From sequence record OZ335955.1: DNA of 47,047 bases. One strand, 5' to 3'. Shown here in pieces: positions 5,233 through 10,798 of the stretch. The notes beneath the pieces are model-generated. The model was not told the origin of the DNA. It ran no database searches and saw nothing but the letters and a program-made list of their open reading frames with translations. Both the position numbers and the translations under genes were made by a program. The stretch's first letter is position 1. Each line of letters starts with the position of its first letter. This stretch comes from a phage.

Positions 5233-6163
5233 CGCAAGGCTACCTCAACCGCGCATATCACAGAGCATTACTGATCCGTTGGGCGCTGCAACCCGTCTGT
5301 CAAAGATGGATAAGGTAATAACGCGCAAATATAAGCAACTCAGGACTCGTGCGCTTGAGTTGTTTCGCACCATTCCGCATAGTCAGGTCAACGCAGAATC
5401 AAGCGAACTGTATTTCTATGACTTCAGTAGTGCGCGGGCTGCCACCTTCATGGATGAGTTGCAGGCGCTGATTGACGAGATTCTGCTTGAAGGTGATGAT
5501 TTCGGTCACGGCAGAATGTGGGCTAACGTGTTTATTGGTGATGCGTATCAGACTGGCACGCAGAAGGCTAACTCAGAACTGTCAAGCCTGTCTCCGGTTT
5601 ATACCGAACAAAGGCCGATTGCCGCGATACTCTACAGCGAGCCTTACCTTAATCGCCTGCAACTGGCATACACATCCGGATACTCAGACTGGCGCGGATT
5701 GAGTGATTATTCCCGTCAGCAACTGGCATCTGTCATTATGGAAGGCATTGCCCGGGGTGCTAATCCTCGTGATGTTGAATCTGATATCGTTAAGCGTGTC
5801 GATGTGTCTCACAGCTACGCGAAACAGATAGCGCAGACTGAAATCACCGGAACGCTACGACAGGCTCACAGGAGGGAAGTCATTGAGGCGCGCGAGGAAT
5901 TGGGTATTGAGACTGTGATGCTGTGGCAATCGGCATTAATGCGCACAACGCGCCAGACTCACGCGGCGAGACACGGACGGTTTTATACACCAGAAGAGAT
6001 TGATACGTTCTATAGCGAAGTTGCTAATCGCAGGAATTGTCACTGCGCTCAAACCCCGGCGTTATTAATGGATGGAAAACCAGTCATTCTTGAGTCATCA
6101 CAGGAAAGGCTTGATAAGCAACGCGAGGCGTGGCAATCAGTCAACAAAAAGCCCTCTAAGTGA
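5213..6163 (+). CDS. head morphogenesis protein (Mu F-like / SPP1 gp7 family)
   Basis: QTEITGT...W...RTTRQTHAARHGRFY motif block typical of the family; follows portal; true start may be downstream (about 5306). Confidence 0.75.
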   Translation: MKILRFNARLPQPRISQSITDPLGAATRLSKMDKVITRKYKQLRTRALELFRTIPHSQVNAESSELYFYDFSSARAATFMDELQALIDEILLEGDDFGHGRMWANVFIGDAYQTGTQKANSELSSLSPVYTEQRPIAAILYSEPYLNRLQLAYTSGYSDWRGLSDYSRQQLASVIMEGIARGANPRDVESDIVKRVDVSHSYAKQIAQTEITGTLRQAHRREVIEAREELGIETVMLWQSALMRTTRQTHAARHGRFYTPEEIDTFYSEVANRRNCHCAQTPALLMDGKPVILESSQERLDKQREAWQSVNKKPSK

Positions 6164-6176
6164 GGGCTTGGTTTTA
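6149..6176 (+). terminator. rho-independent terminator
   Basis: aagccctc-taagt-gagggctt hairpin overlapping the stop codon, followed by ggtttt. Confidence 0.55.
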
Positions 6177-6246: not shown

Positions 6247-6831
6247 TTAATCATCCAGTTTCACGCCGGGAATCTTGCCTGCTGCGATGGCTTCATAAAT
6301 TAGCTTGGCCTCACCCTCGCGCTTGTAATCTTGAGCTACCATTTCTAATACCGCGCAGATAGATTCAAGTACAGCCTCATGCTTCCTTTCTGATTCTGTG
6401 CGGAGTGGGCGGAACTGCGGTTTGTCGATGATGATATCCTTTGCTATTTCCGTGCCCTGCTCTACGCCGAGTATTTTAGTTATTCCATAAATAACAACCA
6501 GTTGGTCTGACGCATATTTAATTGTTACCGGATACCACTCACCGTTGTTGTCGCGATACTCACACTCACACCCCACTGGCGGTAGGCCTTCTCCGTTCCA
6601 TGCGGGCTTTTGCGATGCTGCTAGTGCGGATTCGTATTGGTCCTTGCTAATTTCAATGTCATTATCTTCCACTTCAGAATCCATCTCAATGCACCATTCT
6701 GACGGACAATCACCATTGGCATCAATGAAGTACAGCGTGGTGTTGCTGCATAAAAAACCAGCCTCCACCGCACCATCAGGCCACCCACCACGCTTAGGCA
6801 ATTCTTGAACTAACAGGTCGATAAGTTTCAT
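6247..6831 (-). CDS. hypothetical protein
   Basis: 194-aa ORF, last gene of a minus-strand cassette. Confidence 0.5.
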   Translation of the reverse strand: MKLIDLLVQELPKRGGWPDGAVEAGFLCSNTTLYFIDANGDCPSEWCIEMDSEVEDNDIEISKDQYESALAASQKPAWNGEGLPPVGCECEYRDNNGEWYPVTIKYASDQLVVIYGITKILGVEQGTEIAKDIIIDKPQFRPLRTESERKHEAVLESICAVLEMVAQDYKREGEAKLIYEAIAAGKIPGVKLDD

Positions 6832-7052
6832 TTTGTTTCTCCATCAAAAAGGATTTCTTTGTATTCATCACTAACTTCATATGCTTTATTTAGTTCAAAT
6901 ACCTCATAGGAGTTTTGACCACCTTCTCGCCATGAGTTTTTGTCATTTAGTTTTGCGGCAACAGCGTCGGCTTCATGCTTGTGTGGATAAATAGCAACGA
7001 CATTTGATGAGACGCCGCATTCGATACAACCAACATTAAATACAAGCCACAT
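6828..7052 (-). CDS. hypothetical protein
   Basis: 74-aa ORF, 4-nt overlap with downstream gene (translational coupling). Confidence 0.45.
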   Translation of the reverse strand: MWLVFNVGCIECGVSSNVVAIYPHKHEADAVAAKLNDKNSWREGGQNSYEVFELNKAYEVSDEYKEILFDGETK

Positions 7053-7062
7053 AATTATTCTC

Positions 7063-7350
7063 CTAACGCCTTATTAACCGCCGCATGCGCATTATCAAGA
7101 GCGCGGCGCTTGCTTGATGTTGTCCAGCCTTGCCGTATTGGTCGTCGTAGATTTCAAGTAGTTGCTGGAGTGCTGATAGTAGCTCTGGCGATTCTGCGAT
7201 TAATTTTGCGTTATGCCATTGTTCGGTTTTATCACCGTTATATGTTGGAGTTAACGCAATCTCAACGCCAATATCCGAGACAACATCTGGCGCGTTATCG
7301 TCACCATTAACAACCTCCCACACACCCGGCGTACCTTTAAATTTTCTCAT
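7063..7350 (-). CDS. hypothetical protein
   Basis: ORF-track 7063..7362 starts at GTG; ATG at 7350 preferred; product contains GTPGVWEV...NAKLIAESPELL motif seen in many enterobacterial phage proteins. Confidence 0.45.
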   Translation of the reverse strand: MRKFKGTPGVWEVVNGDDNAPDVVSDIGVEIALTPTYNGDKTEQWHNAKLIAESPELLSALQQLLEIYDDQYGKAGQHQASAALLIMRMRRLIRR

Positions 7351-7358
7351 CACCAATC

Positions 7359-7502
7359 TCACTTAATATATTCAATGATTTCGCATTCACGTATCTGCAC
7401 CAGACCAAATGGCGCAACCACTTTACCGCACGGACGGATTTTGATTTGCTCAAGGCAGAACACTCCGCAGCGTCCGTTTTCTTTGAATTTGACCATTACC
7501 AT
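7359..7502 (-). CDS. small Cys-containing protein (47 aa)
   Basis: MVMVKFKENGRCGVFCLEQIKIRPCGK...; not in ORF track (<60 aa). Confidence 0.25.
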   Translation of the reverse strand: MVMVKFKENGRCGVFCLEQIKIRPCGKVVAPFGLVQIRECEIIEYIK

Positions 7503-7511
7503 GATTTAACC

Positions 7512-7898
7512 TTAAAAAATAATTAATGTAGGCTGCAATTCTTCTTCATACCAAGTCCAGCCAATACACCGCCCTTCCATGGCGTCAATGTAAGGCTTTA
7601 CCCAATCCAAAAATGCCTGAATCTCACCGCTATAGTTTTTGATATCGCTGCGACTGAAGATGTATTGCTCGTCGCTGTAGTCAAATTTTGGGCAACTATT
7701 AACTACGGATGGGTGATGGTAAAAGCTACAGTAGTTACCAATAGAATCCCAGCGCGGTAGTGTGAAAAATTCATGCTCAGGAAGCTTTACCGGCCTGTCG
7801 GCACCAGCAAACATATACTGGATTACATCCATCACCTCTTTCGGTACACCCCCCCCCTTAATCTGACACTTTAAAACCAACTCTGTGTACATTCCCAT
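7512..7898 (-). CDS. hypothetical protein (contains G9 homopolymer in coding strand)
   Basis: 128-aa ORF, first gene after the minus promoter at 7931..7959; run of nine C at 7849..7857 encodes KGGGV. Confidence 0.5.
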   Translation of the reverse strand: MGMYTELVLKCQIKGGGVPKEVMDVIQYMFAGADRPVKLPEHEFFTLPRWDSIGNYCSFYHHPSVVNSCPKFDYSDEQYIFSRSDIKNYSGEIQAFLDWVKPYIDAMEGRCIGWTWYEEELQPTLIIF

Positions 7899-7930
7899 CT
7901 TTTATTCCTCACCGTTTGATTGATGTAGAT

Positions 7931-7959
7931 ACTATACGCCACCGCTCAATCTACGTCAA
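7931..7959 (-). promoter_or_regulatory. sigma70-like promoter TTGACG-N17-TATAGT (conserved family)
   Basis: reverse strand reads TTGACGTAGATTGAGCGGTGGCGTATAGT followed by ATCTACATCA; divergent from an extended -10 (TGaTAGAAT, 7968..7976) on the plus strand. Confidence 0.55.
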
Positions 7960-8002: not shown

Positions 8003-8281
8003 ATGAAACTATCGCAACGCGGCATGGAGACGCTTGGAATCACCGATGCCGTGGATATATCGCCTTACATCACCACTGACACAACGCAGAATCAGTTCGA
8101 CGCGCTGACAAGCCTTGCCACCGACATCGGCATTGACGTGTTCCGTAAATCAACACTTCTGAAGAAACACAACCTGCGCTGCTTCTCATGTGCTGTTGCG
8201 CATTTCATCGTGTGGGGTGAGAAGACTGACGACAAAGCTAAGCGCAAAACTGAAAAAGAGGTTTACTGGTATGGCTATTAG
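8003..8281 (+). CDS. lysozyme-like protein, C-terminal domain only (probable remnant)
   Basis: TQNQFDALTSLATDIGIDVFRKSTLLKKHNL...F..W matches the C-terminal half of P22 gp19 / T4 e-type lysozymes; N-terminal catalytic E/D/T region absent; strong RBS AGGAGG. Confidence 0.5.
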   Translation: MKLSQRGMETLGITDAVDISPYITTDTTQNQFDALTSLATDIGIDVFRKSTLLKKHNLRCFSCAVAHFIVWGEKTDDKAKRKTEKEVYWYGY

Positions 8282-8735
8282 CAAAAACATGAAGGCGTTT
8301 CTGGATATGCTGGCGTACAGCGAGGGCACGGATAACGGGCGACAGAAAACCAATAATCATGGTTATGATGTAATTGTTGGCGGCTCGCTATTTACTGACT
8401 ACTCAGACCACCCGAGAAAGCTGATTAGCCTGCCAAAGCTGGGTATCCAATCCACTGCCGCCGGACGCTATCAGGTGCTGGCTAAGTTTTATGACGCGTA
8501 CAAAAAGCAGTTGCGCCTGCCTGACTTCTCCCCCGCATCGCAGGACGCCATTGCAATGCAGCTAATCCGTGAATGCAAAGCAACCGCAGATATTGAGGCT
8601 GGTCGCATTGCCGATGCCATCCATAAATGCCGTTCCCGCTGGGCTTCGTTGCCGGGCGCTGGCTATGGTCAGCATGAGCAGAAACTGGATAAGCTGATTC
8701 AGGTATACAAGGCCGCTGGCGGAGGTGTGGCATGA
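8271..8735 (+). CDS. R: endolysin, lambda R-type
   Basis: ORF-track 8190..8735 starts at GTG; ATG at 8271; product MAISKNMKAFLDMLAYSEGTDNGRQKTNNHGYDVIVGG...WASLPGAGYGQ is near-colinear with lambda R. Confidence 0.85.
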   Translation: MAISKNMKAFLDMLAYSEGTDNGRQKTNNHGYDVIVGGSLFTDYSDHPRKLISLPKLGIQSTAAGRYQVLAKFYDAYKKQLRLPDFSPASQDAIAMQLIRECKATADIEAGRIADAIHKCRSRWASLPGAGYGQHEQKLDKLIQVYKAAGGGVA

Positions 8736-10309: not shown

Positions 10310-10798
10310 TTACTTTAATGCTCCGTGATTTTTATGGAAACAATATTTTTCCTCAGCTGCTTTTCTGCATTCTGCAGCCATTGACAAGTTTGAGAATCTG
10401 CCAAGCGCAATCTGCTTTCCGTTCACGGCAATCTTTGCATACCATTTCTTACTCTTGTTATCCCAACTAACTCCGACAACATTACTCGTGTTATCAGATC
10501 GCATAGAAAGATTCTTAGCGTTCTGCTTTCTGCTTACCAATCTGAGATTCTCAATCCTATTATCATCACGAATGTGGTTTATATGATCAATCTCCATCCC
10601 CTCTGGTATCTCACCATTGTGCATTTCCCAAATTATTCTATGCATCAGTCGCACTTTTCCAAAGCAATGAACCTGCATGTACCCATTACCTGCCATGCTT
10701 CCTGCCAGCCTCCCTATTTTCATGTTTCTGTTTGTTTTTATCTTCCAATATAGCAACCCATCACGGTATTCGAACACATCATTCCAATCCATCATCAC
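10310..10798 (-). CDS. HNH homing endonuclease (HNH + AP2-like domain)
   Basis: EIDHINHIRDDNRIENLRLVSRKQN HNH motif followed by VVGVSWDNKSKKWYAKI AP2-like region. Confidence 0.85.
   Translation of the reverse strand: MMMDWNDVFEYRDGLLYWKIKTNRNMKIGRLAGSMAGNGYMQVHCFGKVRLMHRIIWEMHNGEIPEGMEIDHINHIRDDNRIENLRLVSRKQNAKNLSMRSDNTSNVVGVSWDNKSKKWYAKIAVNGKQIALGRFSNLSMAAECRKAAEEKYCFHKNHGALK

Follow-up and report, generated by a model that had tools for sequence, protein, structure and literature searches.

Genomic context of the G9 tract

The window, by which we mean the whole 47,047-nucleotide stretch of phage DNA that was analysed (sequence record OZ335955.1), is, by sequence comparison, a Skatevirus-like siphophage genome. 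Its first 25 kb has ~90% identity over 70-79% to the Salmonella phages KFSST1 and Skate, and likewise to INT55, Bas81 and others. The feature under study lies in a 128-aa open reading frame on the minus strand that begins MGMYTELVLKCQIKGGGVPKEV... and contains a run of nine G, read on the + strand as CCCCCCCCC (nine C), which takes in the last base of codon 14 (AAG), codons 15 and 16, and the first two bases of codon 17 (GGT). An initial annotation of the window had noted this run, encoding KGGGV and situated 14 codons from the start, as the longest G/C homopolymer noticed there. Its location and coding were correct by both the sequence and the ORF translation, and the claim as to its length was also true, the next G/C runs in order of length, a G6 (32227) and a C6 (33457), being three bases shorter. 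Indeed, no base forms a longer run than this anywhere in the window, the A/T maximum being 7.

Table 1. Features of the leftward transcription unit and of the homopolymeric tract within its first gene.
Feature	Position	Strand	Details
128-aa accessory gene	7512..7898	-	Match to phrog_4334, a family of unknown function; ferredoxin-like alpha/beta fold predicted
G9 mononucleotide tract	7849..7857	-	From sequence; AAG GGG GGG GGT, codons 14-17
Internal ATG (Met23)	7830..7832	-	Start of the 106-aa remnant called in out-of-frame alleles
Shine-Dalgarno GAGGA	7906..7910	-	Read from sequence; 7 nt upstream of the ATG at 7898; kept in relatives
Sigma-70-like promoter TTGACG-17-TATAGT (predicted)	7931..7959	-	10/12 consensus positions
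Downstream leftward genes (four)	6247..7502	-	47 aa (7359-7502), 99 aa (7063-7362), 74 aa (6828-7052), 194 aa (6247-6831)
Bidirectional terminator-like hairpin	6149..6169	both	8-bp stem, 5 G-C pairs, T-runs on both strands

The promoter predicted upstream of the 128-aa gene would drive a leftward unit of which that gene is the first member (Table 1). Both of its hexamers are conserved in the phages NX263, LPST10, HC6, 6947 and HC8A, and it is directed away from the lysis genes, which start at 8003 (+); the terminator-like hairpin closes the unit at its other end. The 47-aa gene starts 9 nt past the stop of the 128-aa gene and without overlap, and for this reason an effect of the tract on the downstream genes is possible only via Rho-dependent polarity. 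Judged from the layout of the genes, such polarity could act over the ~270-330 bases that would be left untranslated.

By chance statistics alone the G9 tract is unusual but not decisively so, with a p of about 0.05-0.1 that is only borderline. The number of G/C runs of at least nine expected in 47 kb is 0.13 under a model of independent bases and 0.047 under a first-order Markov model, while dinucleotide shuffling gave an expectation of 0.11, at least one such run being present in 9 of the 100 shuffles. G/C runs of at least six are depleted in the window (3 observed vs ~10.7 expected for independent bases), and in the related phage Skate (47.4 kb) G/C runs do not exceed 5.

The 128-residue protein and the loop encoded by the tract

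The gene containing the tract is, judging from its conservation, a real and conserved protein gene. Its product gave a full-length match to phrog_4334 (E = 2.9e-42; residues 1-128 aligned to positions 1-134 of the 190 in the profile) and had 208 homologues at E ≤1e-3, and an alignment of 60 of the homologues contained 23 invariant positions. One intact homologue of 127 aa, in Salmonella phage NX263 (L001, MW427215.1, 1562-1945), is absent from the GenBank annotation of that phage. Neither Pfam nor NCBIfam had a family for the 128-aa protein, and scanning each of the 60 aligned homologues against Pfam was also uninformative. A PDB sequence profile search with the protein returned nothing informative (best E 0.34), and in a Foldseek search of its model against viral models the matches were exclusively uncharacterised proteins of jumbo phages.

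An AlphaFold model produced with the 60-sequence alignment as input had a pLDDT of 93.6 and places a first strand at residues 5-13 and a first helix at residues 20-31. Residues 14-19 (KGGGVP), encoded by the tract, form the predicted loop that joins the two. This loop is variable in both sequence and length across the 60 homologues and, as far as the model and the alignment indicate, tolerates change. Consecutive glycines occur within it in only 6 of 134 homologue sequences, and one of the six (P0002, GGA GGC) encodes them without a G-run.

The gene is accessory. The neighbourhood was matched by 194 phage records, of which 79 gave any match to the gene query and only 10 covered at least 80% of it; in Skate the same slot is filled by other genes. 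The 128-aa early gene is dispensable in nature, from which it follows that its protein is non-essential, and this dispensability provides a simple handle on the role of the protein.

Alleles of the tract in related phages

Tract alleles were surveyed by exact-protein look-ups, for which 40 of 147 cluster members were read, making the survey incomplete and biased, and by an 800-column alignment of 24 near-identical sequences that includes the promoter and gene stretch. The alleles recovered are listed in Table 2. At the level of individual fetched loci, G6 followed by TGTA was found 12 times and G6 followed by CGTA 7 times, while G5, G7, GGTGGGG, GGGGGGGAG and G9 were found once each. Contig counts obtained from exact protein matches were 18+13+2 for KGGVP, 2 for KGGAP, 3 for KGGSVP and 2+1 for the 106-aa remnants.

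Table 2. Alleles at the tract and their predicted effect on the reading frame.
Tract	Frame and product	Occurrence
G6 (GGG GGT or GGG GGC)	in frame, 127 aa	~35 contigs
G5 (GGC sub-lineage)	-1, 20-aa stub	1 contig, L012 (2.3 kb)
G7	+1, 39-aa stub	1 contig of 34 kb, L014; 106-aa remnant also NCBI nr UVY19009.1
GGTGGGG	+1, out of frame	1 contig, L011
GGGGGGGAG (K-G-G-S-V-P)	in frame, 128 aa	3 contigs, L013 type
G9	in frame, 128 aa	window only

Relatives from GenBank at ~91-92% identity (NX263, LPST10, HC6, 6947 and HC8A) have no homopolymer at this position and read AAG GGA GAT GCG CCA (K-G-D-A-P), which is one codon fewer than in the window. Pattern scans identified four closer relatives: an IMG/VR contig, two human-gut metagenome contigs and a scaffold of a Pantoea eucrina assembly. 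Their identity to the window is 95.6-98.2% within the gene and 98.4-99.5% across the surrounding 1.9-5.4 kb of alignment, and all four read AAG GGG GGT GTA (G6, K-G-G-V-P). The 3-nt difference at the tract is the sole internal indel in each comparison with the window. The protein of one of the G6 loci (L008) is the window's protein minus one glycine. Locus L031, reading GGG GGT GCA (K-G-G-A-P), is intermediate between the G6 alleles and the tract-less state. Locus L013 reads AAG GGG GGG AGT GTA, and a tract length of 9 nt therefore exists outside of the window.

Within the promoter and gene stretch of the 24-sequence alignment the tract was the only recurrent internal indel site, with lengths of 5, 6, 7 and 9; the other internal gaps of the alignment were one singleton upstream of the promoter and one mosaic junction downstream. 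Together with the presence of OFF (out-of-frame) alleles in assemblies, this marks the tract as a real indel hotspot and bears out the view of the initial annotation that such tracts are hypermutable. The comparison with relatives proposed as a check on that view gave a divided answer, since the distant relatives keep the codons without a homopolymer, whereas the closest ones vary in tract length. The tract is not maintained across the relatives as a whole, those at 91-92% identity reading GGA GAT GCG.

The G9 allele was found nowhere but in the window, whose exact 128-aa protein is absent from a collection of 15 billion proteins. Nor did exact look-ups match the G3 protein (126 aa), the G12 protein (129 aa, looked up in the R background only), the G9 protein with the Q background or the KGGSVP protein with the R background. 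Three IMG/VR pattern scans returned one contig only, which carries G6. No GenBank phage isolate represents the G6 or G9 lineage, the best gene match among them being 92.3% identical and tract-less.

Out-of-frame alleles and the effect of slips

In silico, tracts of G6, G9 and G12 give a full-length protein, while G8 or G11 would terminate translation after 21-22 aa and G7 or G10 after 39-40 aa. A slip of one base in the window's G9 tract would thus leave a stub of 21 aa (G8) or 40 aa (G10) in place of 128 aa. The gene in the window itself is ON. In the out-of-frame loci L011, L012 and L014 a 106-aa remnant (proteins P0123 and P0126) is called from the internal ATG. This remnant is without strand 1 and without the invariant residues Y4, T5, E6 and K10, leading us to treat the OFF alleles as probable nulls. 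The downstream genes are still called in the out-of-frame contigs, with the exception of the 47-aa gene in L011 and L014.

Two of the out-of-frame contigs, L011 from run DRR205586 and L014 from run SRR31312858, align without a gap over 3.3 kb at 99.7% identity. Both have a 7-nt tract, and both have a variant of the promoter spacer that is missing in the 22 other sequences. The variant, a private G-to-A change, is at the equivalent of window position ~7937, just upstream of the -10 hexamer (GGTATATAGT). As the two contigs come from independent runs and share both the tract length and the linked variant, we infer that the +1 frameshift was one inherited event that is circulating, rather than an assembly error. 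In L011 the run is interrupted by a G-to-T change that was gained later, and in L014 the dead frame has three nonsynonymous changes private to this contig, which suggests, by sequence, that this out-of-frame lineage is locked and possibly decaying rather than reversibly switching. The single G5 contig, L012, is only 2.3 kb in length and could be an assembly error.

The 106-aa remnant was also looked up for 11 tract-less backgrounds, none of which gave a match, and it was missing as well for three of the G6 backgrounds that were tested. As a weak test, this fits with frameshifts being specific to tract-bearing backgrounds. Exact look-ups of the 39- and 40-aa frameshift products likewise returned no match, but that look-up is uninformative, since the collection lacks even the 39-aa products that were called in L011 and L014. 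For annotation, the tract marks a spot at which pipelines split or drop the gene, out-of-frame contigs receiving calls of 39 aa and 106 aa, and assemblies of this phage are worth checking against reads at this point.

Origin of the G9 allele

Our preferred explanation, to which we assign a probability of roughly 0.65, is that the G9 tract is a real and young mononucleotide repeat, situated in a tolerant loop of a dispensable accessory gene, that arose by expansion of G6 by GGG through slippage. We see in it a repeat observed midway along the course that such repeats usually take. The repeat would have been born by substitutions converting GGA GAT GCG (K-G-D-A-P) to GGG GGT GCA/GTA, thereby creating G6 within codons of the variable loop. 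Slipped-strand mispairing during replication would then have generated length variants: a gain of three bases from G6 would produce the window's G9, with one glycine more and the protein intact, while gain or loss of a single base would produce G7 or G5, frameshifts that leave stubs of 39 and 20 aa, respectively. Finally, substitutions would have interrupted some of the long alleles, converting G7 to GGTGGGG and a 9-nt allele to GGGGGGGAG.

Rates of single-base indels scale with homopolymer length, and spontaneous slips are mostly of ±1 (PMC5854121). In coliphages, runs of at least six have read-level indel frequencies of ~3e-4 to 7e-4, the A9 run in T2 agt among them (bioRxiv 10.1101/2025.10.21.683753). 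On the basis of this increase with run length and of the published coliphage frequencies, we expect that a population of the phage would continually shed G8 and G10 nulls, on the order of ~1e-4 to 1e-3 of reads. The real rate may be different in a phage of this kind. No phage DNA polymerase is annotated in Skate, and for this reason Skate-like phages are probably copied by the host replisome under host mismatch repair; with mismatch repair active, the rate could be far below that of T-even phages.

The predominance of ±1 slips also implies that the +3 step was either rare or took place via non-functional intermediates, and the latter route would fit a reversible ON-OFF-ON history as well. As G6 and G9 are both ON, the alleles themselves are compatible with either a direct +3 step or an ON-OFF-ON path. 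We think that the locus acts like a simple contingency-type locus, with its hypermutability being incidental and not selected.

Alternative interpretations

A stronger reading of the same locus sees in the tract a true contingency locus, evolved for bet-hedging and kept because it is advantageous to turn the 128-aa early protein ON and OFF reversibly; the protein could, for example, help on some hosts and on others trigger, or fail against, a defence system. The tract would be well placed for this, lying towards the 5′ end of the gene that comes first after a strong predicted promoter, where a slip gives a clean null. ON (6, 9) and OFF (5, 7) lengths both exist in nature, with the OFF lineage in two independent samples, and passage from G6 to G9 through ±1 steps would imply an ON-OFF-ON history. 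There is also precedent, in that coliphage runs of at least six are reportedly enriched in hypothetical and regulatory genes and are reported to serve as putative contingency loci in T2 agt and T4 rIIA (bioRxiv 10.1101/2025.10.21.683753), and Campylobacter phages use polyG tracts in this manner according to the account of Sorensen et al. (2021) given in PMC10877375. However, most of the family is tract-less, including relatives at 91-92% identity, and the dominant allele is the short G6, which is stable over ~35 contigs and 4.4% flanking divergence (L009), with OFF alleles in only 3 of ~42 contigs. Both long alleles, moreover, have interrupted derivatives (GGTGGGG and GGGGGGGAG), which would stabilise the tract rather than keep it mutable, the three private nonsynonymous changes of L014 are as expected of a decaying pseudogene, and the family, profile and fold searches gave the protein no function and no trade-off. 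We therefore regard bet-hedging as an unlikely reason for the existence of the tract. It is similarly doubtful that, in this enterobacterial siphophage, the conserved phrog_4334 protein is toggled by reversible slippage. On such a reading the protein could be, for instance, a factor for host takeover or against host defences that does harm wherever the host can sense it; every burst would release both ON and OFF progeny, and the G6, G7 and G9 alleles from gut metagenomes would be snapshots of that process. The suggestion of the initial annotation that changes in tract length could switch expression of the gene holds insofar as a ±1 slip removes almost the whole protein, but an evolved switch is unsupported, most homologues lacking the tract and the common allele being G6.

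That the window's tract is truly G6, or of some other length, and G9 an artefact of sequencing or assembly deserved consideration, since long G/C homopolymers are classic sites of error, as had been pointed out in the initial annotation, and G9 occurs in the window only. Homopolymer errors, however, are overwhelmingly of ±1 and break the frame, whereas the window has exactly three bases more than G6 and keeps the frame, and a 9-nt allele, GGGGGGGAG, was assembled independently at the same place in three other contigs. These two points make a length artefact unlikely. In addition, the window gene has three private synonymous changes in the 24-sequence alignment, which argues that the window represents a distinct lineage and not a miscalled copy of a known one. 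The run might also be imagined to be a recoding signal, either a G GGG GGG heptamer for -1 ribosomal frameshifting or a site of transcriptional slippage, from which a second protein would be made, and formally it does fit X XXY YYZ in frame. Against this, both alternative frames stop within 5-24 codons, with products of 21 or 40 aa, and the motif is not conserved in the relatives. As no alternative frame stays open, we rejected the production of a second protein by programmed frameshifting or slippage as not credible. To our knowledge, the known transcriptional slippage sites of bacteria are A/T runs.

A role for the run as the spacer of a promoter for the + strand lysis genes, its length acting as a switch, was considered separately and likewise rejected, as a scan found no + strand promoter spanning the run. 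The nearest + strand -35-like hexamer that we could identify by eye, CTGACA at 7863-7868, is downstream of the run, and consequently tract length would not alter a + strand spacer.

Comparison with known hypermutable tracts

The repeat within an ORF, the length polymorphism confined to the tract and the natural OFF alleles are all features of a contingency locus. The locus works like one, by a mechanism that is not new, and we make no claim that it is adaptive. The closest known description is that of the putative contingency loci of coliphages, runs of at least six such as A9 in T2 agt and A6 in T4 rIIA (Gomez, Barrick & Waters, bioRxiv 10.1101/2025.10.21.683753), followed by the polyG tracts of Campylobacter phages and the contingency loci of bacteria. 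As in the coliphages, the run is inside a phage ORF, slips of ±1 lead to nulls and the gene is non-essential or 'hypothetical', and the length of 9 nt is the same as that of the T2 agt run. The BASEL collection used in the coliphage study includes relatives of this phage, Bas77-82 being among the matches obtained. In contrast to those loci, the run is G/C here and A there, and the phage probably relies on the host replisome, unlike the T-even phages with their own polymerase. The kind of evidence is also different, consisting of between-genome alleles in natural samples here and of read-level frequencies and reversion assays in the coliphage study. The present data thus add to a recent proposal made from laboratory lysates of T-even and other phages evidence from natural populations, namely in-frame and out-of-frame lengths at one tract among independent metagenomes of near-identical phages, one out-of-frame lineage having spread between samples.

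Hypermutable polyG tracts in Campylobacter Fletchervirus phages generate phenotypic diversity and contribute to evading bacterial resistance, as the work of Sorensen et al. (2021, Cell Rep 35:109214) is cited in PMC10877375. Both systems have G tracts in phage genes, and in Fletchervirus, as represented in that citation, changes in length switch the frame and make phenotypic subpopulations. The two also differ, in that the locus described here has only one tract, which lies in one small early gene and is missing in most relatives. The polyG/polyC loci of bacteria (Campylobacter, Neisseria, Haemophilus) resemble it in that a homopolymer lies close to the start of an ORF, that their ON lengths are multiples of 3 apart and that OFF alleles occur in natural populations. 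Classical bacterial contingency loci usually keep long tracts (at least 8) across strains and have high measured switching rates, whereas at this locus the usual allele is G6, with long alleles being rare and prone to interruption.

Additional observations in the region

The Pantoea eucrina scaffold that carries a G6 allele (L009, NZ_JAOBTT010000003.1) is 20 kb in length and contains virulent-type phage sequence, and its protein (P0124) is also listed from an assembly of Sphingomonas sanguinis. The phage sequence in these assemblies looks like contamination or carry-over and not like prophages.

In the leftward unit, the 99-aa gene at 7063-7362 (-) belongs to PF27050 Phage_P22_Y8K6 / phrog_1273. 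At ~7127 within this gene there is a 1-nt deletion (GGCAAGG-CTGG) in the window and in L011, L014, L015, L017, L018 and L026, at a site where L012, L013, NX263, L006, L007, L009, L016 and Skate read GGCAAGGTCTGG. The deletion shifts the frame of the last ~20 residues (GKAGQHQASAALLIMRMRRLIRR against GKVWTTSSKRRALDNAHAAVNKALGE), and both of the alternative tails are open and of similar length. A mosaic junction is present at ~7359-7362, several relatives being ~99% identical through the 128-aa and 47-aa genes and then, downstream of ~7359, continuing abruptly into unrelated sequence (L006/L007/L016).

On the other side of the tract gene, an inserted homing endonuclease separates the lysis genes from the 128-aa gene in phage LPST10. 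The lysis cassette is headed by two adjacent, overlapping lysozyme-type ORFs, of which that at 8003-8281 (+) encodes a 92-aa partial T4-type lysozyme (PF00959, residues 19-74 against profile positions 55-110 of 125; phrog_10457) and that at 8190-8735 (+) a lambda-R-like endolysin of GH104 type; the counterparts of both are annotated as endolysins in relatives. Among the small early genes, a 162-aa ORF at 10310-10798 (-) resembles, from its translation, a homing endonuclease of the HNH/AP2 type, and the positions of HNH genes vary among the relatives.
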